From positions 1 to 39,945 of the IMG/VR virus record IMGVR_UViG_3300027822_000008: a stretch of DNA of 39,945 nucleotides; one strand, written 5' to 3'. Source of the DNA: a virus. The notes below the pieces were generated by a model that worked only from the letters and a program-made list of their open reading frames with translations, was not told the DNA's origin and did not search any database. Below, one piece after another: positions 128 to 39,455 of this stretch (its first letter is position 1; every line of letters begins with the position of its first letter). A program made the translations under genes and the position numbers.

Positions 128-1159
128 TGGTCCGGGATGATTGGGGACTATAACGCGCCCGACGTGGATCACTGGCTTTACGAGCTGGCGGAGGTTGAAA
201 AACCCGATGGCTGGGCTTTCTTTCATCAGCCTGGCGGAGTTATTGAGGTTGGCGTGGACCCCAACACAAAGCGGCCGCTTTTCGAGGTAAACCCAAACGC
301 TGAAAACCTCAAGAACCTTCGGCCCGGGTACTACGAGCGCGGCATGCGCGCCAAGAGTGATGCCTGGATAAAGGTAAATCTTGCCAATCAGTACGGTTTT
401 GTGACAGAGGGCAAGCCGGTCTACCCGGAATACGTGGATTCCGTGCATTGCCGCCCCGTCGACCCGATCTATGGGCTACCGATTCGCCGCTCATGGGACT
501 ACGGCCTGACGCCGGCCTGTACGTTTTCCCAGCTGTCGCCCTCTGGCCAGCTCCGTTTTTTCTACGAGATGTGCACAACGCGCTCAGGCATTGAGCGGTT
601 TACCGACCAGGTGCTGATGCACTGCGCTCAGGAGTACCGGGGCTTTGAGTTCACGGACCTGGGCGACCCGGCCGGCGATGCGGGCAAGAAATCATCCTTC
701 GATGGTGGCACCTTCGCTGACGAGCGTAGTTGCTTCGATATCCAGCTTGCCAAGGGCGTGGACATTGTTGGCGGCAATCAGAACCCGCACACTCGGCAGG
801 AGTCCGTACGCTATGGGCTTAACACCATGATCGATGGTCAGCCTGGACTGGTTATTGATCCGGCGTGCAAAATGCTAAGAAAGGGCTTCCAAGGCGGCTA
901 TTGTTTGCGTAAGCTCCAGGTAAGCGGCGAACGCTATGCGCTAAAGCCGGATAAAAATGAATATTCACACCCCCACGACTGCGCGCAATACGACGCGGCC
1001 GATGTCTTTGGCGATATCATCACTGGCGCCGATGGTCTGGATGGCGCCCAGCAGATCGCGCCTGAGGTTGTACCGGTCCCTGGCAGGCGCGCACATAGGC
1101 TGCGGGGTAAACAATCGCCCGCTGTTGCGGTTGATGACTTTGACGTTTACGAGGTGTAA
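2..1159 (+). CDS. terL: Terminase large subunit, C-terminal part (continues from 39442-39945 across the circular junction; whole gene 1536 nt, 511 aa)
   Basis: Open from the window edge and in frame with 39442-39945 once the 127-bp overlap is collapsed. The N-terminal part carries Walker A GPLGSGKT. It sits between the small terminase and the portal. Confidence 0.9.
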   Translation: MRKARGTQATGIWLNEIKELSKPVVDILDLRHGRFPLEYDPKWSGMIGDYNAPDVDHWLYELAEVEKPDGWAFFHQPGGVIEVGVDPNTKRPLFEVNPNAENLKNLRPGYYERGMRAKSDAWIKVNLANQYGFVTEGKPVYPEYVDSVHCRPVDPIYGLPIRRSWDYGLTPACTFSQLSPSGQLRFFYEMCTTRSGIERFTDQVLMHCAQEYRGFEFTDLGDPAGDAGKKSSFDGGTFADERSCFDIQLAKGVDIVGGNQNPHTRQESVRYGLNTMIDGQPGLVIDPACKMLRKGFQGGYCLRKLQVSGERYALKPDKNEYSHPHDCAQYDAADVFGDIITGADGLDGAQQIAPEVVPVPGRRAHRLRGKQSPAVAVDDFDVYEV

Positions 1160-1162
1160 ATC

Positions 1163-1492
1163 ATGGGCTTTGGTATCAGTTTCAAAAATCCGTTCAAGAG
1201 CATCAAAAAGGCATTCAACAGCTTCACTGACAGCATCGGTGACGGCGTCAACTTCTTTGTCGGCGGCTCCAAGGATATTGCGCGTAGCGCATCGCGTGGG
1301 TTTGCTCCAAAGATCCCGAAACTTAAGGTGCCACCCCCTCCTGACTTGTCGGCACCTACCGACGTCACAGATACCGGGCTGACGCCGAGGCGGCGACCAC
1401 TGCCGTTCGGTGGCGCGGTCGCCACCAGCCCACTGGGCCTTGTGGATGACCCGGACAAGAAAGAAAAACGTAAGGTACTGCTCGGAGGCTGA
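1163..1492 (+). CDS. Small hypothetical protein between terminase and portal
   Basis: 109-aa ORF with GAGGTG 7 nt upstream of the ATG. Pro-rich centre and basic C-terminus; no family recognised. Confidence 0.55.
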   Translation: MGFGISFKNPFKSIKKAFNSFTDSIGDGVNFFVGGSKDIARSASRGFAPKIPKLKVPPPPDLSAPTDVTDTGLTPRRRPLPFGGAVATSPLGLVDDPDKKEKRKVLLGG

Positions 1493-1493
1493 T

Positions 1494-3176
1494 ATGGACG
1501 CTGAACAGATTGTTAAGGTCACCTCTGCCCTTGAGGGTGAGAAGGCCAATATCTCCAACGTTTTCCAGGACATCAAGCGCTACTTTCTGCCGAATCGCGG
1601 CAACATCACCAGCATGCAGTCACCGGGCACCCAGTCAGACACTCAGACCCGCTTTGATTCGACGGGTATGGAGGCGAACCGCCTGTTGATGTCGAGCATT
1701 CAAAGCGCAATGGTGCCAGCGACTTCGGAATGGTTCGGCCTCGGCTTTCGTGAGGAAGATATTGCCAACGACAAGTCGGTGATCGATTGGCTTGAAGACT
1801 GCGCGCAGCGCATGCACAAGGCCTATAACGCCAGCAACTTCGGGATCAAGTACGGCGAGGGGTTCCTGGACCTTGGCGGGTTCGGGACTACGGCCATACT
1901 CCAAGAAGAACTGCCCCGGGATCGAGTCGGCAGTTTCGCCGGGGTCAGGTTTGATACGTTCGCCGCCGCCGAATATGTCTTTACCACATCGCCGCTCGGT
2001 CAGGCAGACGGCCTGTACCGCCGGTTCAGCTTCACCGCCCAGCAGATCAAGGATAAGTTTGAAGACCTGCCGGGCTTTCGCGGGTTCGGTTCTTCGATTG
2101 ATGGCGCCCTTAAGGCCACCGACAAGTCGAAAAAACAGGAAAAGTTCGAGATTGTTCACGCCATCTTCCCGCGCCAGCACTTCAACCAGAAGTTCGGTGG
2201 CGCGATAAATCTTCCTGTCGCCAGTGTTTACGTGGCAGTGAAGGATAAGCATATCCTCAAGGATGGCGGTTATCATGAGTTCCCGGCAGTGATTCCCCGC
2301 TGGGAGCTTACAGCAGAAGACAACGGCTGGGGCCGCTCTCCAGCGTGGATCGCACTCCCCGAGGTAAAAACGCTTAACCAGTGGGAAAAACTGGAGCTTA
2401 AGGCGATGGTGAAGGAAATCAGCCCCCCGTTGCTGGTGCCGAACAAATCGGTAGTGGGCGGCATGCGGACTACGCCGAATGCTATTAACTATTACGATGC
2501 GCGCCGCACAGGCGGACAAAAGCCCGAGTACCTGAACGCTGGCGTGAACTGGGCCATCGAGGACGCGAAGAAACGAGCAAAACAGGAACAGGTGCGGCGA
2601 ATCTTCTTTGTCGATCAGCTGCAATTTTCACCAGACGCGCCTCAAATGACAGCCACCGAAGTGCTGGAGCGCACCGTACAGGCACGCCGCGCGATGGGGC
2701 CTAACTTCTTTCGCCTGTCGTTTGAAATGCTGGACGCGACGGTATCGCGCACGTTCAACATCATGCTACGCGCCGGAGCCTTCCTACCGCCGCCGGCTAT
2801 CCTGCAGGATCGGCAGCGCCGAGGACTGGATTTAACGCTCGATGTGACCTATGTGTCTCCGCTTGCCAGAGCGCAACGCCAGGAAGATGTCAGCGCCACG
2901 CTACAGGCATATCAGTCGGGCGCGCAGATCGCGGAAGCCAAGCAAGACCCCTCTGTTCTGGACAACTTCGACGACGACGCCGCGATTGATGTTATCTCCA
3001 AGCAGCTCGGCGTACCGGCCAAGATCATGCGCGGGAAGGAAGAGGTGGCGGGAATTCGTGAGGCGCGTAATCAGCAGGCCCGGCAACAGCAGGAGCTTGA
3101 GCAGGCGGCTGCCGCTACGCAGGTAGCTGAAGCGGCAGCCGGCGCGCAGGCCAAGGGCGGGGTTGTTGCGGCCTGA
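1494..3176 (+). CDS. Portal (head-to-tail connector) protein, podovirus type
   Basis: Start moved to ATG 1494 (GGAGG 6 nt upstream); the track start at 1410 overlaps the upstream gene. 560 aa, located directly after terL. The overall pattern resembles T7/BPP-1-type connector proteins, with an Ala/Gln-rich C-terminal tail. Confidence 0.8.
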   Translation: MDAEQIVKVTSALEGEKANISNVFQDIKRYFLPNRGNITSMQSPGTQSDTQTRFDSTGMEANRLLMSSIQSAMVPATSEWFGLGFREEDIANDKSVIDWLEDCAQRMHKAYNASNFGIKYGEGFLDLGGFGTTAILQEELPRDRVGSFAGVRFDTFAAAEYVFTTSPLGQADGLYRRFSFTAQQIKDKFEDLPGFRGFGSSIDGALKATDKSKKQEKFEIVHAIFPRQHFNQKFGGAINLPVASVYVAVKDKHILKDGGYHEFPAVIPRWELTAEDNGWGRSPAWIALPEVKTLNQWEKLELKAMVKEISPPLLVPNKSVVGGMRTTPNAINYYDARRTGGQKPEYLNAGVNWAIEDAKKRAKQEQVRRIFFVDQLQFSPDAPQMTATEVLERTVQARRAMGPNFFRLSFEMLDATVSRTFNIMLRAGAFLPPPAILQDRQRRGLDLTLDVTYVSPLARAQRQEDVSATLQAYQSGAQIAEAKQDPSVLDNFDDDAAIDVISKQLGVPAKIMRGKEEVAGIREARNQQARQQQELEQAAAATQVAEAAAGAQAKGGVVAA

Positions 3177-3469
3177 TGGATAAAGTTACTCAGGATTTAT
3201 TCCTTGCGTACCTGGATGTTGCCGAAAGCGGCTCGGGCAAGCTGGTCATGGAAGATATGCGCACATCCTTTATTGAGCTGGGCAGCGAGGCCCTTCTCGA
3301 AGAGCTTGAGCAGTTCCCGCACCCCTACCGTGCCTATGTCGAAAAAGGTATGGCGATGGTGGTGCACAAGATGGAGGCAACCGTAAAGACCGCAGAACAC
3401 TATCAGTTACATGGATTCCCTGACGACGACAGAGAGGTAAATGACGATGAAGACAACCTGGTTGGTTAA
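3176..3469 (+). CDS. Acidic hypothetical protein
   Basis: 97-aa ORF. Its ATG overlaps the portal stop (TGATG); acidic C-terminus DDDREVNDDEDN. Confidence 0.55.
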   Translation: MDKVTQDLFLAYLDVAESGSGKLVMEDMRTSFIELGSEALLEELEQFPHPYRAYVEKGMAMVVHKMEATVKTAEHYQLHGFPDDDREVNDDEDNLVG

Positions 3470-4391
3470 CCTTATCCTGCAGCCGTGGCTGCTGTTTATG
3501 TTCTTTGCCGATGATGACGGTGGGGGTGGTGGAGGCGGTGACGATGGAGGGGCTGGCGACGACTGGCTTGGCGGCCTGAGTGAAGAGCTGCGCAGCGACG
3601 GCTCAATGAAGCCGTATCTAGAGAGCAAGGACCTCGGCGCACTGGTCACTGATTACATCGGAACCAAACGCATGATGGGCTCGCGTATTCCCATTCCGGG
3701 GCAGGATGCTGGCGACGACGCGATGAAAGAATTCCGCGAGAAACTGATTAACGTGCCGGGCGTTGCCATGATCCCGGATGCTGAAGACGCGGACGGCATG
3801 GCGGGACTATGGAACAAGCTGGGCCGACCGGAGACAGCCGAGGAATACGGAATCGGCAAACCCGAAAACTTACCGGATGGCGTTGACTGGTCGGACGATC
3901 AGGTCGGCGGCTTTCTCAAGCTCGGCCATGAGATTGGCCTTACGAAAACGCAGGCACAGCGCCTTATGGACTATCAGGTACAGGAGGCAACAGCCGCCAG
4001 CGAGGCAGAAGCCGAGCGGACAACGCAAGGCAAGGCCGCATTGCAATCTGAATGGGGGGCGGCGCTGAATCAGAACATGGGTATTGCGCGCGCCTTCCTG
4101 GCCGAAACCATGCCGCCCGACGAGGCTGCGTTTTACGGCGGGCTGCTGGAGGCCAATCCGGCGCTGGCAAAGGCATTGCACAAGGCCGGCACGACTGCGC
4201 TTGAGGACACGGTCATTCGTAACCTTGAGGGCGGTGGGCCGATCAAGACCCCCGGCGAGATTCAGGCGGAAATCGCACAGATTACTTCCAACCCTGAATA
4301 TATAAACCGAAATTCACCGAACCGGCAGGGGCTGGTGGACAAGGTCGGAAAGCTTTATCAACAGCTTGAAGGCTTGAAGAAAGCGGGCTAA
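3441..4391 (+). CDS. Putative scaffolding (capsid assembly) protein
   Basis: Lies between portal and capsid, is helical/charged, and has a DDWLGGLSEELR...SMKPYLESKDLGALVTDYIG motif like podovirus scaffold proteins. GAGAGG lies 4-5 nt before ATG 3441. The start is uncertain (alternative ATG 3498). Confidence 0.6.
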   Translation: MTMKTTWLVNLILQPWLLFMFFADDDGGGGGGGDDGGAGDDWLGGLSEELRSDGSMKPYLESKDLGALVTDYIGTKRMMGSRIPIPGQDAGDDAMKEFREKLINVPGVAMIPDAEDADGMAGLWNKLGRPETAEEYGIGKPENLPDGVDWSDDQVGGFLKLGHEIGLTKTQAQRLMDYQVQEATAASEAEAERTTQGKAALQSEWGAALNQNMGIARAFLAETMPPDEAAFYGGLLEANPALAKALHKAGTTALEDTVIRNLEGGGPIKTPGEIQAEIAQITSNPEYINRNSPNRQGLVDKVGKLYQQLEGLKKAG

Positions 4392-4406
4392 CCAGGAGAC
4401 AGCACC

Positions 4407-4685
4407 ATGACAGGCAAAAATCAGGACGATACAGAGGTCGACGCCACCAGCACCGAGGGAGGCCAAAAAAGTGATAATCAGTCACCGGACAGCCAAAACA
4501 ACGAAGTCGATGCGCCGGAGCAACCAGCCACTACTGAAGCTGATGCGGCTGAGGAAGATCAAGCGGCGGCGCCAGAAAGCAATGCGCCGGAAGCGGCTGC
4601 TGAACAAGTTGCCGAAGACTTACAGGTACCAGCCAGTCCAAAACGCTTTGTAGCCGACACCTGCCGTAGCCGATCACAGCAGTAA
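4407..4685 (+). CDS. Acidic low-complexity hypothetical protein
   Basis: 92-aa ORF with AGGAG 9 nt upstream. Composition is Asp/Glu/Ala/Pro/Gln-rich. A terminator follows. Confidence 0.5.
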   Translation: MTGKNQDDTEVDATSTEGGQKSDNQSPDSQNNEVDAPEQPATTEADAAEEDQAAAPESNAPEAAAEQVAEDLQVPASPKRFVADTCRSRSQQ

Positions 4686-4709
4686 CAGAACATCCTCCCC
4701 CAGGGATTT

Positions 4710-4736
4710 GCCCCGGCCACGTCCGGGGCTTTTTTA
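4710..4736 (+). terminator. Rho-independent terminator candidate
   Basis: GCCCCGG-ccacgt-CCGGGGC stem-loop followed by TTTTTTAATTTT. Confidence 0.7.
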
Positions 4737-4752
4737 ATTTTACGCATATGTA

Positions 4753-4780
4753 TTGACAGAACGGTTTTAGCCGCTACTAT
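4753..4780 (+). promoter_or_regulatory. Sigma70-like promoter candidate upstream of the major capsid gene
   Basis: TTGACA (4753-4758), 16-nt spacer, TACTAT (4775-4780). It is followed by a roughly 140-nt leader with hairpins. Confidence 0.5.
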
Positions 4781-4926
4781 GCAAGGTAAGCCGGGGTTGC
4801 GCGATTGTGGAATGCGTCCGGCGTTTCTCCACCGTCTAGTTCAGCGTACTGAACAGGCGGGTCCGGTCTTGAAACCGGGTTGCCCGACCGACAAGCGTTA
4901 GTTTATTGACACTTATCGGAGGCATT

Positions 4927-5817
4927 ATGTCTACTCAAATCCCTACCTGGATGGTTGAACAGTACAAGAACAACGTTCACGTACTGGCACAGCAGAAAGG
5001 CTCAAGACTCGCAAGCACCGTTCGCATCGATGGCGATATCATCGGCGAGCGGGTTCATTACGACCGCATCGGCGCAGTAGACGCGCAGAAAGTCACCGGT
5101 CGACATCAGGATACTCCGCTGATGAATACGCCGCACAGCCGGCGTTCTGCCGTCATGTACGACTATGACTGGGCGGACCTTGTCGACAAGCCCGACAAGC
5201 TCAAGACAATCAACGACCCGACCAACTTCTACGCCATGCAAGCAGTATGGGCATTGGGTCGTGCGAAGGATGACGAGATTATCGAAGCCATGTTTGGTTC
5301 CGCCCTGTCCGGCAAGGAAGGCACGACCTCTATCGCCTTGCCCGCCGCACAGAAGGTTGCCGTTGACGACCACACCTATGACGCGGGTTCCGGCAACGTT
5401 GGCTTGACGGTTTCCAAACTGATTCTGGCCAAGGAGATTCTGCTTAGCTCAGACATTGATCCGGATATGGAAATGTTCTGCGCCTGCACGCGCAAGCAAA
5501 TCTCCGACCTCCTGGCCACTACCGAAGTCACCAGCTCCGACTACAACAGCGTTAAGGCGCTGGTCGAGGGCAAAGTCGATACCTTTATGGGCTTCAAGTT
5601 CAAGACCACTGAAAAAATGACGCTGGACGCTAGCGGTCATCGTCAGGTTGGCTGCTACAGCGAAGTTGCTGTCGGACTGGGTTTGCCACAGGACGTGATG
5701 GTTGACATCGGCCCGCGTCGTGACAAGCGCAACGCCACGCAGGTCTATGCCAGCGAGTCCGCCGGCGCTGTTCGCATCGAAGACGAGCAGCTCGTCGAAA
5801 TCGCCTGCGCCATCTAA
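4927..5817 (+). CDS. Major capsid protein
   Basis: Start moved to ATG 4927 (GGAGG 4-5 nt upstream). 296 aa, after the scaffold. The gene is insulated by a promoter and terminators, consistent with high expression. The N-terminal pattern (...QYKNNVHVLAQQKGSRL...) resembles podovirus capsid proteins. Confidence 0.8.
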   Translation: MSTQIPTWMVEQYKNNVHVLAQQKGSRLASTVRIDGDIIGERVHYDRIGAVDAQKVTGRHQDTPLMNTPHSRRSAVMYDYDWADLVDKPDKLKTINDPTNFYAMQAVWALGRAKDDEIIEAMFGSALSGKEGTTSIALPAAQKVAVDDHTYDAGSGNVGLTVSKLILAKEILLSSDIDPDMEMFCACTRKQISDLLATTEVTSSDYNSVKALVEGKVDTFMGFKFKTTEKMTLDASGHRQVGCYSEVAVGLGLPQDVMVDIGPRRDKRNATQVYASESAGAVRIEDEQLVEIACAI

Positions 5818-5844
5818 CGCCGGATCATATAGGAGCACTCTGAT

Positions 5845-6336
5845 ATGGCAGTAACTACCGAAACCTCCACGCAGCGGTCGAATCCAATTGCTAGCCCGCC
5901 CGTGATGAACCCGGCCTATGAAGATCATGGCCGCCTGCGCGTTAAAGCGTTCACCTTCACCCAGGGCGCTGCCGCTGGTGATGCTACCAGCACCCAGGGG
6001 CTCGTGAAGCTGCCGCCCGGCAAGGGCCGTGTCTACCTCGGGCTGAGCTTGCTGGAAAACTCGGCGTTCGGGGCTTCTCGTACTCTCGATGTCGGTTATG
6101 CCGCACATACCCAGACGGATGGTACGGCGGTCGCTGCTGATCCCAACGCGTTTGACAACGCCATTGATGTATCGTCGCTTGCCTCGGCCGCACTCGGCTC
6201 CGATGTCGCGGCGGCTTCCGGCAAGATGTGGGAATTCGACTCGAAGGCCGGAATCGATATTGGGGCGGTTGTGGCGGGCGGAACAATTCCTGCCGGAGCA
6301 ACCCTGACCGGTTACATCGTTTATTCGCAGGACTAA
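5845..6336 (+). CDS. Putative capsid decoration/cement protein
   Basis: 163-aa Ala/Gly-rich, beta-rich ORF immediately after the capsid gene and inside the same terminator-bounded cassette. AGGAG lies 10 nt upstream. The function is inferred from position only. Confidence 0.45.
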   Translation: MAVTTETSTQRSNPIASPPVMNPAYEDHGRLRVKAFTFTQGAAAGDATSTQGLVKLPPGKGRVYLGLSLLENSAFGASRTLDVGYAAHTQTDGTAVAADPNAFDNAIDVSSLASAALGSDVAAASGKMWEFDSKAGIDIGAVVAGGTIPAGATLTGYIVYSQD

Positions 6337-6357
6337 GCACGAAAGTCGTGGGACTTT

Positions 6358-6396
6358 AACGGGGTCGGGCTGAAATGCTTTGGCCCCGTTTTTTCT
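6358..6396 (+). terminator. Rho-independent terminator candidate
   Basis: AACGGGG...CCCCGTT stem followed by a T-run (TTTTTTCTTT). A smaller hairpin CACGA-aag-TCGTG lies just upstream (6338-6350). Confidence 0.7.
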
Positions 6397-6409
6397 TTGA
6401 GGTGTTGCC

Positions 6410-8386
6410 GTGGGTGGAACAAGGGACGCATTAAACAGGCATGTCCGGGAGGCTGGCTTTAAGCGACCTGGGCTTGATGGCCACGCTGACGAGCATCTCG
6501 AGCTAGGGTTGACTGCGGATGTCGCCCAGGTATCCACTTTGCAGACGTCCCTTATTGATGCGCTACAGCGCATTACCGCACTTGAAAGTAATACCGGCAC
6601 GGTTGTTGAAAACCTGCCCGGACAGATTCAATGGGCAGCGACTACGCCACAGGTTAACGAGGGCGCCGCTGCTGTTGATAATTATGTCGACGTGTCAGTA
6701 TTCCGATCAGCCGGAACCTTTGGCGTTGTCGATGCGATACTCGCAATAACGACAACGGCGACACTAACCACCGAATACACCTTGCAGATCGGCGTCGATG
6801 TGTCGTCATTGGTGCCGTTTACCAGCGGAAACCGCGTCACGTTTCTCGATGGCCAGGTATCGAAAATTATCCGGGTAACGTGTATCGGGGACTCGATTGC
6901 TGCCGATGTTGATATCACCATGACCCTGTCGGGGCACAGAGCGAACGGTTCTGTGCTGGCAAGCGTTGAGGGTATCAATACTGTCTCCGTAGTTTCTCTG
7001 CTGGAAAACAACGGCGGGACACCGATTCTTGTTACTGGCGCCAGTTTTACGGTGGCAAATTCAACAAACACGCTGACTGCCGCTATTACGCTTGCTGCAA
7101 CTAACGCCGCATCTCAGATCATAACGACTGACGCGACGGTTACAGCTTCCGATCCGCGCTGGTCTGCCTATGACGCAACGATACCGAGCGTCCAGCAGCC
7201 GGCCTATGATGCGCTGACAACGTGGTACGCGCACTTCAAGTCGTCTACTGGCGATATCGTAAGCGTTAGCGCGGCCGCTACAGCTTCTGATACAGCGCCG
7301 CCGAGCCTGCCAACGGGGCTTGCCCAGTCAGGTGCCACATCCTCTTCTATTACCGCAGTTTGTAACGTGTCGACCGACAACGAGGGTTCGGCCATCACTT
7401 ATCGGTTCTACAAGGATGCGGTCCTTGATGGCACATCAGCTACGCCAGCCTATACGTTTACCGGGATAACTGCGGCGGCCACGCATTCCATTACTGCTGA
7501 CGTTGTTGATGCGTTTGGCAATGCGTCCGCACAAACGGCCGGTGTAAATATGACGGCCTCGGCCGCCTCAGCGGTAATCTTTACCGGAGACTATACGGCC
7601 AACGCAGGCGTCGGACCGTATAACCTCGATTCCATGACGCAGGTGTCGACAAATGACTCAAGTTATCATACCGAGGCGCTGGTCGCCGACTCGAACGCCC
7701 TATCGATGGGCAGTACGCATAAGTCGACATTCCTTGATTATTGCCTCGATAGCTATTTTGGGTTTGATGTGTCGATTCCGTGGTCTGCCGCCGCGATCTA
7801 CTGGAAGTGCGCCATGCGCTACGGGGATGACGGAAACGCTTATACCTGGTCGAACCCGGAAACCCCGACGAATGGCGCGTGTGGCGATCTGACAAACCGG
7901 CCCCATGAGCTTAAGTTTCCCGACATCGGCGGCGGCCAGGGCTTTGTCGGCAACGCGCGAATCATCGGCAAGGTACGCCAGTCCGGCCTTGGCGATACCG
8001 GGCGCTACCGGGTGTACACAAACGACGGGACAGATCACAACCTTGACGATTCAACGTTCGGGATGGGCGCCAGCGGGATTCTGGAGTCGAATGTTCCCTA
8101 TGTTATCCAGTTTGCCTGTATCGACAATCTTGATGGGACGCAGACTGTTAAAATATGGCGGCATCTGTATGGTGGCGCGCCTTCGGAAGAGGCAACACCT
8201 GATTACGAAAGGACCGGATCGAATTACTTTGATTCAACCCTATGGTCTGCTCCGCCTTCTGGCGGCCCTGGTCTTTATTTCGGACACGGATACAGGAATC
8301 ATAACTCTGTTGCCTCGCCCGTACAGTCGCTCTACATCGGTGCTGATGGCGTAGGGCCGCAATTCAGCGACAGCTTTATACTATGA
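6410..8386 (+). CDS. Multidomain virion protein: coiled-coil N-terminus, Calx-beta-like domain, FN3-like domain, C-terminal jelly-roll-like domain (putative fibre/glycan-binding protein)
   Basis: 658 aa, GTG start with GAGGTG 6 nt upstream. The segment VNEGAAAVDNYVDVSVFRSAGTFGVVDAILAI...VTFLDGQVSKIIRVTCIGDS...ITMTLSG fits the Calx-beta pattern. The segment PPSLPTGL...SSSITAVCNVSTDNEGSAITYRFY...YTFTGI...H looks FN3-like. Confidence 0.6.
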   Translation: MGGTRDALNRHVREAGFKRPGLDGHADEHLELGLTADVAQVSTLQTSLIDALQRITALESNTGTVVENLPGQIQWAATTPQVNEGAAAVDNYVDVSVFRSAGTFGVVDAILAITTTATLTTEYTLQIGVDVSSLVPFTSGNRVTFLDGQVSKIIRVTCIGDSIAADVDITMTLSGHRANGSVLASVEGINTVSVVSLLENNGGTPILVTGASFTVANSTNTLTAAITLAATNAASQIITTDATVTASDPRWSAYDATIPSVQQPAYDALTTWYAHFKSSTGDIVSVSAAATASDTAPPSLPTGLAQSGATSSSITAVCNVSTDNEGSAITYRFYKDAVLDGTSATPAYTFTGITAAATHSITADVVDAFGNASAQTAGVNMTASAASAVIFTGDYTANAGVGPYNLDSMTQVSTNDSSYHTEALVADSNALSMGSTHKSTFLDYCLDSYFGFDVSIPWSAAAIYWKCAMRYGDDGNAYTWSNPETPTNGACGDLTNRPHELKFPDIGGGQGFVGNARIIGKVRQSGLGDTGRYRVYTNDGTDHNLDDSTFGMGASGILESNVPYVIQFACIDNLDGTQTVKIWRHLYGGAPSEEATPDYERTGSNYFDSTLWSAPPSGGPGLYFGHGYRNHNSVASPVQSLYIGADGVGPQFSDSFIL

Positions 8387-22454: not shown

Positions 22455-22970
22455 ATGGATTGGAAAGATACGATAGGCGCGATAGCGCCCATACTTGGAA
22501 AAGCCATATCGATTGCGAACCCAGTCGCAGGGCTGGCGATACAAGCCGCGTCATCTGCCCTTCTGGGGAGACCAGACGGCTCTGAGGATGAGCTGGCGGC
22601 TGCGGTGTCCGGTGCCAGCCCTGACCAGCTACTCGCCCTGAAACAGGCTGAGAATCAGTTTAAGCTAGATATGAAGAGAATGGGCGTTGATCTTGAGGCC
22701 GTGCTTGCCGAAGACCGCAAGTCTGCGCGTGAAATGGGTATCAAGACGGGATTAGCACCCCAGATGACTCTATCCGTTATTTATGTGCTGGCTTTTTCCA
22801 TAGTGCTGTACGTTGTCTTCTCGGGCGATTTAGAAATGAGCGAATCACAGGAAAAGATGGCAAGTTACCTCCTTGGTATATTATCTGCCGGGCTACTCCA
22901 GATAATGAACTTCTGGTTCGGATCGAGCAAATCCAGTCAGGACAAAAACAACATCATAGGTGCCAAATGA
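22455..22970 (+). CDS. Holin, 3-TM type (GTA-holin/DUF3154-like)
   Basis: 171 aa. N-terminus MDWKDTIGAIAPILGKAISIANPVAGLA, the central motif LLALKQAENQFKLDM, and two C-terminal TM helices match my memory of the 'holin of 3TMs' family. Confidence 0.65.
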   Translation: MDWKDTIGAIAPILGKAISIANPVAGLAIQAASSALLGRPDGSEDELAAAVSGASPDQLLALKQAENQFKLDMKRMGVDLEAVLAEDRKSAREMGIKTGLAPQMTLSVIYVLAFSIVLYVVFSGDLEMSESQEKMASYLLGILSAGLLQIMNFWFGSSKSSQDKNNIIGAK

Positions 22971-23329
22971 AACTCATATTTATCCTGCTACTCGCTATTC
23001 CCCTATCCCTTCAAGCGTCAGAAAAACGTCACACGGCTATCCCGATTGCTGGTCCCCAAGGAGATCCAGGGCTGAATGGAAATGATGGGAAAGATGCTGA
23101 CGCTGTGGCGATTGGCCTTGCGGCTGCTCAAATTCATCCAGACTTTAACTACAACGGCTTTCAAGGTGGCGTAGGGGTAGCAACCTTCGACGGAGAGCAG
23201 GCTGTAGTCTTCGGTATAGCCAGAAAGGCTTGTATCAATAGATGCGGCAAGAAGATGCTTCTAAATGGCTCTGTGGGCGTCTCAGGCGGTGAGGTTGGGG
23301 CTGGGGTCGGAGCTAACTGGCGGTGGTGA
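22967..23329 (+). CDS. Mini trimeric-autotransporter-like protein: signal peptide + 5 collagen G-X-Y triplets + YadA-type beta-barrel anchor
   Basis: 120 aa. Signal peptide MKLIFILLLAIPLSLQA/SEK, then GPQGDPGLNGNDGKD. The rest, AVAIGLAAAQ...GFQGGVGVATFDGEQAVVFGIARK...LLNGSVGVSGGEVGAGVGANWRW, fits the YadA_anchor pattern and ends in an aromatic residue. ATGA overlap with the holin stop. Confidence 0.7.
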   Translation: MKLIFILLLAIPLSLQASEKRHTAIPIAGPQGDPGLNGNDGKDADAVAIGLAAAQIHPDFNYNGFQGGVGVATFDGEQAVVFGIARKACINRCGKKMLLNGSVGVSGGEVGAGVGANWRW

Positions 23330-23541
23330 AGCTTGAATCCATCACCAGATTTCTCGAAGTCCTGAGAAGCTGGTGGTTCATCATTCCGATGCTTGGGCTA
23401 TCATTCGGTCTTAATTGGCACCAGAAAGAGGAAATACAGCGTGTACAAACTAATTGTTCTGCCTGTCAGCCTATTGATGATCGCTGGCTGTGCTTGTGCA
23501 GTTCCGATACCAGCAGAAAAGTTGAAGCCGGTAGTAATTAA
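23323..23541 (+). CDS. Possible i-spanin-like type II membrane protein (unusually short)
   Basis: 72 aa, GTG start overlapping the upstream stop. N-terminal TM WWFIIPMLGLSFGLNW. The lipoprotein ORF begins inside it in another frame. Confidence 0.4.
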   Translation: MVKLESITRFLEVLRSWWFIIPMLGLSFGLNWHQKEEIQRVQTNCSACQPIDDRWLCLCSSDTSRKVEAGSN

Positions 23542-23605
23542 GCCTGCCTGCCCGGAACTGACTGACAAACAGGCTCTCAGACGCTGTTCTGAGCTGTTGA
23601 GGTAA
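23441..23605 (+). CDS. o-spanin-like outer-membrane lipoprotein
   Basis: GTG 23441 with AGAGGAAA 6 nt upstream. VYKLIVLPVSLLMIAGC carries the lipobox IAGC. The mature part is Pro-rich and contains Cys residues. Confidence 0.6.
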   Translation: MYKLIVLPVSLLMIAGCACAVPIPAEKLKPVVIKPACPELTDKQALRRCSELLR

Positions 23606-38666: not shown

Positions 38667-38911
38667 ATGACCTTATTACTGCCCTGAACCGAATCCGCGA
38701 CGAGGTTTTTGAATGCTCATTCGTTGAGGTGGTTGCTCTGAGCATGGACCATCCGGCCGTTATGCTGACTATCGGGTGGCCGGATGGTTTCACGTGGAAC
38801 AATATTGTCGAGAGAAATACCCGTGAAACGGATAAGCAGATCGTTGATCGCGTGATTTATGTGGCGAATAGCCGGCGCGCCCAAGCACAAGGCGCCCCTT
38901 GTCGTGACTAA
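38663..38911 (+). CDS. Hypothetical protein
   Basis: 82 aa with an ATGA overlap upstream. Confidence 0.55.
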   Translation: MNDLITALNRIRDEVFECSFVEVVALSMDHPAVMLTIGWPDGFTWNNIVERNTRETDKQIVDRVIYVANSRRAQAQGAPCRD

Positions 38912-39455
38912 AGGCAAGATCACCCCAAGACAGCAGCAATTACTCGATCAGCGGATGCTTGAGCCGAAGATTAAGGACGCCGCAAATACGATTGGTATGA
39001 ACTACGATTACGCAAGGCGTCTATTCACAAAAAGCCACATTATTGACGCTTTTAACAAGATGCGTGCCGCGCGGGCGGAAAGAGTCTTGCCGAATCAGGA
39101 TTATGTGCTCAGAAAGGCAGTGCAATATCTGGAGGCGAACGTTGCTGACTTTCTGGTTACGCCTGACGACGGGATGCCGTACTTCGATTTGAGCCAGGCA
39201 ACACCTGAGCAGCTGGCGTGCATTGAGTCACTGCAGCTGGATACGGCTGCGGAGGAAGGCGACGAAGACGAGGACGGCAATCAGCGGTACATCGACGTGC
39301 GCAAAGTCAAGCTAGGGTTGCCGAAGAAAAAGGATATGTTGGAGCTGATCGGTAAGCACGTGGGGGTTGGCGCCTTCAAGCAGGATGGCGCGCAGGTAAA
39401 CCTGGTTATCGTGAAAGACTTCACCGGCCGTGAGCGAGAAGATGGCGACCCTTGA
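38904..39455 (+). CDS. terS: Terminase small subunit
   Basis: LTPRQQQLLDQRMLEPKIKDAANTIGMNYDYARRLFTKSHIIDAFNKM is the typical Terminase_2-type HTH N-terminus. I prefer the GTG 38904 start (8-nt overlap with the upstream gene); the track start is 38859. Its stop overlaps the terL start. Confidence 0.75.
   Translation: MTKGKITPRQQQLLDQRMLEPKIKDAANTIGMNYDYARRLFTKSHIIDAFNKMRAARAERVLPNQDYVLRKAVQYLEANVADFLVTPDDGMPYFDLSQATPEQLACIESLQLDTAAEEGDEDEDGNQRYIDVRKVKLGLPKKKDMLELIGKHVGVGAFKQDGAQVNLVIVKDFTGREREDGDP

Follow-up and report, generated by a model that had tools for sequence, protein, structure and literature searches.

We describe a very small trimeric autotransporter anchor encoded within the lysis cassette of a phage. 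The gene lies in IMG/VR virus record IMGVR_UViG_3300027822_000008, of which positions 1 to 39,945 were analyzed; this whole stretch of 39,945 nucleotides (nt) is called the window. The open reading frame (ORF) occupies positions 22967-23329 on the + strand and encodes 120 amino acids (aa), and we refer to its product as the mini-TAA, after the trimeric autotransporter adhesins (TAAs). Judged from its sequence and predicted fold, the mini-TAA is a genuine trimeric-autotransporter (type Vc) anchor that carries hardly any passenger. It is one member of a family of similarly short proteins and, together with an inner-membrane protein encoded downstream, it constitutes a two-gene module that resides in lysis cassettes. 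We put at roughly 50% the probability that the mini-TAA takes part in lysis as a subunit located in the outer membrane and acts jointly with this inner-membrane neighbor.

A trimeric autotransporter anchor with almost no passenger

Several lines of evidence identify the C-terminal part of the protein. First, the Pfam YadA_anchor profile (PF03895) matches residues 65-120 with 30.9 bits, compared with a gathering cutoff of 22.7 bits (E=2.9e-7). Second, a profile of the family, compared with the sequences in the PDB, matches Hia (E=1.4e-5) and YadA (E=3e-3). Third, an AlphaFold2 (AF2) monomer model, made with 68 homologs in the alignment, has a mean predicted local distance difference test score (pLDDT) of 86, with values of 84-97 in blocks of 10 residues from residue 41 onward, and contains a helix (41-54) followed by four strands (65-74, 77-90, 95-106 and 109-118). 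The top Foldseek matches of this model are the membrane domains of Hia (3emo, 2gr7 and 2gr8) and AtaA (9vnj), at a probability of 1.00 and a root-mean-square deviation of 2.4-3.2, and nothing else was matched. A preliminary description of this DNA, made from the letters alone, had assigned the C-terminus to the YadA anchor type and had named the PF03895 search as a check; the search exceeds the gathering cutoff, and the assignment is upheld by the family profile and by the predicted structure. Based on homology to Hia, YadA and AtaA, the protein should form a homotrimer with a 12-stranded barrel in the outer membrane.

The mini-TAA shares with the anchors of YadA, Hia and AtaA a signal peptide, a helix with four strands and a terminal aromatic residue. 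The signal peptide was predicted by inspection and Kyte-Doolittle hydropathy, and a hydrophobic N-terminus that ends in small residues is kept throughout the family alignment. The last two residues are RW in the window protein, and the family consensus, found in 75% of members, is RF. Unlike the passengers of cellular TAAs, which have roughly 1000-2000 residues (preprint 10.64898/2026.01.22.700529), that of the mini-TAA consists of the ~23 residues that separate the pore helix from the predicted cleavage site and has no head or stalk domains. No passenger-domain match to Pfam was found in the window protein or in the family members scanned, and the extended passenger with head, neck or stalk by which a TAA adhesin is recognized is absent. 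The mini-TAAs also differ from other TAA anchors in having a family-specific conserved loop, Q..FD..T...QGS, which by homology lies on the periplasmic face, and in having been found only on metagenomic contigs of phage-like character, in most cases within lysis cassettes.

The passenger stub of the window protein had been described as containing five collagen-type G-X-Y triplets. The triplets are there, but the protein does not pass the Pfam Collagen profile (PF01391; 11.5 bits, below the cutoff of 27.2), and when the Gly-rich mature protein is shuffled, 1.3% of the shuffles contain at least five triplets in a row. Homologs have up to ~14 triplets in the same position as the five of the window, and relatives P0002, P0004, P0006 and P0010 all have more triplets there than the window protein. 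Among the 68 aligned family members, 6 match Pfam Collagen at E<=0.01 and 10 contain at least four triplets. Because homologs have longer runs at the same position, we consider the window run to be real even though it is only marginally nonrandom; on the evidence of the alignment, the segment is a shortened homolog of a real collagen-like region.

The protein is not a singular case. An exhaustive HMMER search of 1.84 billion representatives (threshold E<1e-3) detected mini-TAA homologs in 70 clusters, nearly all of 98-135 aa, with a median length of 118 aa among the 68 aligned members, 61 of which match PF03895 individually. A word-indexed protein search returned only the window protein itself, and no member of the family has a name in any source. 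The common plan is a signal peptide, a variable linker, the motif G.AL.IA.AQ..FD..T...QGS.G.G, the rest of the barrel and an NWRF end. Conservation is lowest in the linker (median 24.5 aa, range 14-58, measured to a conserved helix position), where it amounts to 0.91 bits per column, compared with 2.0-2.7 bits per column in the barrel and in the loop between the helix and strand 1, which faces the periplasm by homology with Hia. The sole invariant residue is Q66, at the start of strand 1, whereas Q55, F58, D59 and T62 are conserved in 74-90% of members. Some linkers are collagen-like (G-X-Y), among them those of the window subclade, and others consist of Thr/Asn/Val-rich repeats. A His is found within the first 12 mature residues in 58 of the 68 members, and two or more in 40; one example of a His-rich start of the mature protein is DPHH.

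The mini-TAA family has so far been seen only on phage-like metagenomic contigs. A megablast search with the cassette against 50,697 cultured-phage records gave no match, and tblastn searches of these records with the window protein, two other members and one partner protein gave only a nonsignificant match of the partner (E=0.9). At this sensitivity the family appears to be absent from cultured phages, although low-complexity masking may hide some members. Three pattern scans of 185,579 bacterial species genomes detected no relatives, a result that depends on the patterns used and does not prove absence.

We give hardly any credence to the idea that the ORF arose by chance, or that it is what remains of a longer adhesin gene in decay, and has no function. 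It is true that the ORF is short and Gly-rich and that its collagen-like run stands out only marginally from shuffled sequence. Nevertheless, the Pfam match lies above the cutoff, the fold is confidently predicted, and ~70 clusters of the same size conserve the signal peptide, the barrel and the C-terminal aromatic residue, as well as the synteny and the codon-overlap junctions of the gene. Given this conservation across the family, the idea is effectively refuted.

A two-gene module in lysis cassettes

The mini-TAA gene is tightly embedded in its operon. Its ATG at 22967 shares the sequence ATGA with the stop codon (TGA, 22968-22970) of the upstream 171-aa ORF, and its own stop codon (TGA, 23327-23329) overlaps the GTG start (23323) of the downstream 72-aa ORF in the junction GTGGTGA. 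The 120-aa frame, its sequence and both overlaps are thus present as first described, and the overlapping codons suggest that the mini-TAA is co-translated with lysis genes. A scan found no + strand terminator between 21042 and 24072, the numbers of promoter- and terminator-like sites in the region are not clearly above shuffle expectation, and the GC content of the gene is 52.3%, compared with 50-51% in its neighbors. Morons have their own promoter and terminator, often show deviant GC content and are expressed in lysogens. None of the moron hallmarks (own promoter and terminator, GC anomaly and, in the pattern scans of bacterial genomes, presence in prophages) is found for the mini-TAA, which agrees with the earlier claim that the gene is part of the lysis operon rather than an independent moron. 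Lambda Bor and Lom, whose genes lie close to late or lysis genes, are likewise small proteins of the outer membrane; the mini-TAA differs from them in its fold and in lacking moron signatures.

We read 23 distinct genomic contexts of the family, the window included, all of them phage-like contigs. In each of the 22 contexts that have downstream sequence, the barrel gene is followed by an ORF for a small single-pass membrane protein, which is directly next to it in 20. The junction is typically TAATG, ATGA or GTGGTGA, and the usual overlap is 1-7 nt. Nineteen of these downstream neighbors belong to a single family, the main clade, with hidden Markov model (HMM) E values from 6e-30 to 1e-4. Main-clade partners begin with F/Y-x-W-V-K-L-I-L-D/E-N, continue with a transmembrane (TM) segment and an outside part of 30-70 aa, and end with CxxC or HxH, H-x4-5-H and an invariant final His (..H.KEYH). 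This Cys/His end motif looks metal-binding. The partners of L044 and L049 contain long His-rich runs, and by homology the Cys/His motif of the partner and the His-rich start of the barrel protein lie on opposite sides of the outer membrane. No partner has a Pfam, PHROG or NCBIfam match, a lipobox, or a BamE, OmpA or SadB-like domain.

L052 and L051, which are most closely related to the window, share with it a different neighbor of the same architecture. It measures 66-89 aa, its membrane segment contains LEVLRSWWF..P, and its end carries C..C...GW.C.C. An apparent membership of the window 72-aa ORF in the main clade (E=6e-6) was circular, as the HMM held the window sequence; a clean HMM gave no match, and hhalign gave a probability of 26% that covered the TM segment only. 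In the window subclade, then, only position and architecture define the module. In L052, whose cassette is the nearest relative of that of the window, the mini-TAA and the i-spanin-like gene are separated by a 66-aa ORF with two CxxC pairs (zinc-ribbon-like), which shows that the tight coupling of these genes in the window is not obligatory.

A check named in the preliminary description, whether homologs occur in the lysis cassettes of other phages, proved strongly positive. A peptidoglycan hydrolase gene is found within two genes of the module in 13 of the 23 contexts, and these hydrolases represent six Pfam families: Phage_lysozyme (window, L030), DUF5675 (L025, L033, L041), Peptidase_M15_3 (L029, L032, L050), M15_4-like, with weak matches (L034, L036, L045), Amidase_2 (L043) and Amidase_3 (L004). 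Five more contexts (L047, L048, L049, L051 and L052) have holin-like neighbor genes, two of which belong to PF11351 (GTA_holin_3TM). If a random gene had a 4-in-60 chance of such a neighbor, p would be ~3e-10 for 13 of 23, with the caveat that the contexts are not all independent. While the module stays constant, the hydrolase and holin families around it change, and this turnover speaks for a functional link rather than for inherited synteny alone.

A proposed role at the outer-membrane step, and its alternatives

We propose the following course of events. The mature mini-TAA, of ~103 aa, would be secreted and would trimerize into a 12-stranded barrel of the YadA/Hia type, whose pore would be plugged by three short helices, so that only a stub of ~20 residues, collagen-like in the window protein, would be exposed at the cell surface. 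Barrel and neighbor would be made late and in matched amounts, and the complex of the barrel with its inner-membrane anchor would act at the last step of lysis, in which the outer membrane is destroyed once holin and endolysin have done their work. The task of a spanin would then be carried out with a β-barrel in place of, or alongside, an outer-membrane lipoprotein; in the window, the barrel would be a third, barrel-type member beside an i-spanin-like and o-spanin-like pair.

Contact between barrel and neighbor in the periplasm is supported by the docking seen in the AtaA-TpgA system, by the combination of a variable outside with a conserved loop that is periplasmic by homology, and by a passenger too small for an adhesin. 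In a crystal structure, the membrane domain of AtaA forms an A3B3 complex with periplasmic TpgA, the N-terminal domain of which docks on the barrel (PMC12523085). AtaA-TpgA and SadA-SadB resemble the module in that the gene of a small envelope protein lies beside the TAA gene. They differ in that TpgA (BamE-like plus OmpA) and SadB (an inner-membrane lipoprotein) have features that mini-TAA partners lack, with no detectable homology between them, and in that the mini-TAA has almost no passenger that would need help in export.

The closest functional parallel would be lambda Rz/Rz1, which is likewise a tightly coupled pair of inner- and outer-membrane genes in a lysis cassette, with a type-II single-pass subunit and periplasmic cysteines, and which, like the module, often provides the only outer-membrane-directed genes of the cassette. 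In contrast to two-component spanins, the outer-membrane subunit of the module is a predicted β-barrel and not a lipoprotein, the gene for the outer-membrane subunit comes first, and no clear sequence similarity between the module and spanin families was detected. A lipobox Cys, by which an o-spanin would be recognized, is missing from the mini-TAA; the lipobox in this region is in the separate ORF at 23441-23605. The 72-aa ORF has the character of an i-spanin, being type-II single-pass and overlapping the lipoprotein ORF in the lysis cassette, and this overlapped arrangement is conserved in L051 and L052. Neither the 72-aa ORF nor any main-clade partner has a PHROG match.

It had been suggested that the i-spanin candidate of the window is abnormally short and would need help at the outer membrane. 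This argument is weak: the combined periplasmic length of the window pair is ~80 aa (~42 + 38), which falls within the published range of 62-300 for two-component spanins (PMC6139136). We also considered the pair as a decayed remnant and rejected this view, given that the same short pair occurs in L051 and L052. A strict lipoprotein scan within 3 kb of the module detected o-spanin-like ORFs only in the window, L025, L029, L030 and L033, and a relaxed scan of the remaining 15 contexts gave nothing convincing. Ten module-bearing lysis cassettes have no lipoprotein spanin candidate within 3 kb, and in many cassettes no pair other than the module is directed to both membranes. In a 2018 census, 91 of 677 phages had no spanin candidate (PMC6139136).

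Several observations weigh against a role of the module in the outer-membrane step. In L025, L029, L030 and L033 the module is accompanied by a lipoprotein overlapped with a 74-78-aa Rz-like i-spanin with an N-terminal TM segment. The pair lies downstream of the module, and the L029 i-spanin matches the Rz-like spanins of phrog_1026 (E=2.6e-8), the other three being assigned by size and architecture. Since the module stands beside complete spanin pairs in these four cassettes, it is not simply a spanin replacement. Four contexts (L027, L035, L037 and L046, perhaps also L044) are not visibly lysis cassettes. Only 1 of 22 phages with a phrog_1544 holin-like gene has the module, which is therefore accessory. 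By homology the N-terminus of the mini-TAA points outward, so that the barrel offers only short loops to the periplasm, and the periplasmic parts of the partners are also short (~30-70 aa). The window 72-aa ORF is not demonstrably homologous to the main-clade partner. Finally, function is deduced from gene neighborhood. The lysis accessory proposed in the preliminary description is borne out as far as residence in lysis cassettes is concerned, and a lysis function is suggested by the company the gene keeps.

The non-lysis contexts bear on an alternative that we consider rather unlikely but worth weighing, namely that the mini-TAA is a late surface factor, a barrel that masks a receptor, excludes superinfection, keeps progeny off debris or alters adhesion, with the partner as a biogenesis helper. 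Residence in a lysis cassette would then merely provide late and strong expression. TAAs are adhesins, phages are known to carry them, and helper proteins of TAAs are known (SadB, TpgA). The stub is hypervariable, which would suit an exposed region under diversifying selection, and it is often collagen-like or His-rich. Four or five contexts lie outside lysis cassettes, and in one of these, L037, the mini-TAA and its partner lie between two tailspike- or fiber-like genes (800 and 740 aa), an arrangement that fits a surface or adsorption-related role best. A stub of ~20 residues would nevertheless make a poor adhesin or shield, and a protein expressed only when infection is about to end would have little time to act in exclusion. 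The gene has no promoter, terminator or GC anomaly of its own, pattern scans detected no relatives in bacterial genomes or prophages, and the partners have no BamE, OmpA or SadB-like domain. Recurrence beside six unrelated endolysin families is also hard to explain for a cargo gene.

Other phage-borne TAAs illustrate what such a factor looks like. Eib proteins are TAAs carried by phages or prophages. Another example is gp046 of the N4-like Erwinia phage S6, an "adhesin" of 379 aa (PMC10654107); it sits among early and middle genes, and it barely registers against the mini-TAA profile (E=0.0086). These proteins share with the mini-TAA a phage-encoded anchor of the YadA type, but they have several hundred residues and real passengers, lie outside lysis cassettes and are read as virulence or conversion genes.

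The coexistence of the module with complete spanin pairs in L025, L029, L030 and L033, and its accessory nature among phages that share the phrog_1544 holin-like gene, would suit a further alternative, that of a lysis regulator. Here an envelope-spanning tether would stabilize the envelope, or would signal superinfection or the state of the envelope to the holin and so tune lysis timing, as T4 RI and RIII do in lysis inhibition. The evidence from neighboring holin and endolysin genes is shared with the outer-membrane role, and the metal-binding-looking motif of the partner and the His-rich starts of the barrel proteins could sense or switch. We regard this alternative as improbable: there is no homology to any antiholin, the ten spanin-less module cassettes are more simply explained by an outer-membrane step, and the signaling idea is purely speculative.

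A bolder form of the outer-membrane role, which we advance only tentatively and hold to be less probable than its negation, is that the mini-TAA and its partner constitute a third class of outer-membrane disruption, a "β-barrel spanin", in part of the ~13% of phages without spanins, with the collagen-like or His-rich tails and the Cys/His tails serving to couple or trigger the two subunits. To our knowledge, only spanins and one disruptin are known for the outer-membrane step of Gram-negative lysis. The disruptin, gp28 of phage phiKT, is a nonspanin outer-membrane disruptor that is described as resembling cationic antimicrobial peptides (bioRxiv 10.1101/515445). Its gene likewise lies in a lysis cassette, and in spanin-less phages it has been proposed or shown to perform the outer-membrane step. 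The mini-TAA differs in being of the Sec-exported β-barrel type and has no sequence relationship to disruptin. We know of no inner-membrane partner of disruptin.

A full-text search of the literature yielded no description of YadA-type anchors in lysis cassettes, and a 2026 global survey of TAAs and their helpers makes no mention of phages or of such short forms (10.64898/2026.01.22.700529). What would be new is the role of the TAA anchor and, for the spanin concept, the outer-membrane subunit, and there is a realistic chance that the mini-TAA represents a new class of lysis protein. A module that occurs beside six endolysin families, and whose barrel gene is the sole outer-membrane-directed gene in ten cassettes, is a testable candidate mechanism; if it is correct, this would be the first type Vc anchor used for something other than adhesin display. 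If the mini-TAA is instead a late surface factor, its family would still be new among phage outer-membrane proteins and would have a dedicated partner. In either case the mini-TAA offers a natural minimal model, of ~100 residues, for the assembly of trimeric barrels.

The window cassette and neighboring genes

Seven genes follow the tailspike gene (PF12708) in the window cassette, after which the coding strand switches (table 1). The first product, a tail-anchored membrane protein of 88 aa, has no Pfam, PHROG or NCBIfam family and is a candidate holin or antiholin. The endolysin that follows contains neither a hydrophobic segment nor a signal-anchor, as judged by hydropathy. The 171-aa protein next in line had been called a holin with three TM segments. 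Three hydrophobic segments are indeed present, of unequal strength, starting near residue 104 (strong) and near residues 135 and 7 (weaker, the N-terminal one being weak). The protein matches only phrog_1544, listed as of unknown function, and is not similar to PF11351 (GTA_holin_3TM); it is a holin candidate from its gene context. Homologs of phrog_1544 adjoin endolysin genes in many phages, and one record labels such a gene as holin. Members flank several types of endolysin in Vibrio, Pseudoalteromonas, Rhodoferax and Bordetella BPP-1 (bbp1) phages (L003-L024), and phrog_1544 is probably an unrecognized holin family. Many phrog_1544 cassettes have no obvious spanin either.

The 54-aa lipoprotein has a mature part of 38 aa that is Pro-rich and contains three further Cys residues, and a Shine-Dalgarno sequence, AGAGGA, precedes its GTG. 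Its match to the Rz-like spanins of phrog_8971 is weak (E=0.015). The lysis region of the window contains no other lipoprotein candidate; a scan of the whole window gave two more, one of them in an alternative frame of a structural gene and the other among genes of the reverse strand. The last product of the operon, of 79 aa, has no Pfam, PHROG or NCBIfam match, and its homologs in L052 and L051 share the motif ..PE..A..RFK....H..

Table 1. Positions of features in the window and, where a contig is named, in related contexts.
Contig	Feature	Position	Strand	Details
Window	88-aa protein, one C-terminal TM segment	21723-21989	+	First gene after tailspike; Kyte-Doolittle peak 2.18, residues 56-74; coiled-coil/TM example
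Window	Endolysin, T4-lysozyme type, 142 aa	21993-22421	+	PF00959 Phage_lysozyme E=1.5e-10; phrog_7 E=4.9e-16
Window	phrog_1544 membrane protein, 171 aa (holin candidate)	22455-22970	+	phrog_1544 E=7.7e-21
Window	Mini-TAA, 120 aa	22967-23329	+	PF03895
Window	Predicted Sec signal peptide of mini-TAA	22967-23017	+	Residues 1-17, cleavage after LQA
Window	Five G-X-Y triplets of mini-TAA	23051-23095	+	Residues 29-43; GPQ GDP GLN GND GKD; vestigial collagen-like passenger stub
Window	Predicted pore helix, loop and four β-strands of mini-TAA	23087-23326	+	Helix 41-54, loop 55-64, strands 65-118, ending RW; AF2
Window	Cys pair of mini-TAA, β2-β3 turn	23230-23246		Residues 89-93; C-x3-C or CPxCG
Window	i-spanin-like protein, 72 aa	23323-23541	+	One N-terminal-side TM segment, ~42 periplasmic residues, four Cys
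Window	o-spanin-like lipoprotein, 54 aa	23441-23605	+	Lipobox IAGC; overlaps 3' end of 72-aa ORF in another frame
Window	Tail-anchored membrane protein, 79 aa	23609-23848	+	Hydrophobic residues 59-77; last operon gene
Window	Small terminase	38859-39455
L052	Homolog of 79-aa protein, 77 aa	1473-1703
L051	Homolog of 79-aa protein, 69 aa	1343-1552
L052	66-aa ORF with two CxxC pairs	962-1162		Between mini-TAA and i-spanin-like gene
L025	Partner	6354-6623
L043	Partner	4353-4658
L044	Partner	531-791		His-rich run
L049	Partner	1640-1915		His-rich run
L037	Mini-TAA and partner between two tailspike- or fiber-like genes	2589-7929
L027	Tad2-like protein	1791-2054		Directly upstream of mini-TAA
L030	Tad6	6077-6697		~4 kb from module
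L025	DUF5675	5223-5645		Endolysin position
L033	DUF5675	1489-1965		Endolysin position
L041	DUF5675	3182-3604		Endolysin position
L025	Coiled-coil/TM protein	5645-6004
L043	Coiled-coil/TM protein	3118-3477
L049	Coiled-coil/TM protein	298-639

In essence, the window is the whole genome of a podophage, circularly permuted, from a metagenomic contig of 39,959 bp. Its portal shares 30-38% identity with portals of Pelagibacter, Yersinia and Vibrio podophages, and the window contains recombination genes (ERF, YqaJ) as well as genes for PAPS reductase, FtsK-gamma and DUF1367. Scans of the window for tRNAs and with Rfam were empty, and no integrase was found among the ORFs tested.

The Cys pair in the β2-β3 turn of the window mini-TAA is conserved in the window subclade (P0002-P0006) and absent from most other members. 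By homology this turn is periplasmic, and the i-spanin-like and lipoprotein neighbors of the subclade are also Cys-rich, features that suggest disulfide chemistry in the periplasm. A correlation between the Cys residues of the turn and those of the partner, which would have pointed to an intermolecular disulfide, was sought, but the sequences show no consistent pattern on inspection.

Genes of anti-defense type occur near the module in two contexts, Tad2-like in L027 and Tad6 in L030. DUF5675 occupies the endolysin position in L025, L033 and L041, and also in L008 and L015, and this cassette position suggests that DUF5675 is a cell-wall hydrolase. In most module cassettes a protein of ~80-130 aa with one TM segment and a coiled-coil-like character, belonging to no known family, is encoded just upstream of the endolysin, and this recurrent protein may be another holin, antiholin or spanin-like component.

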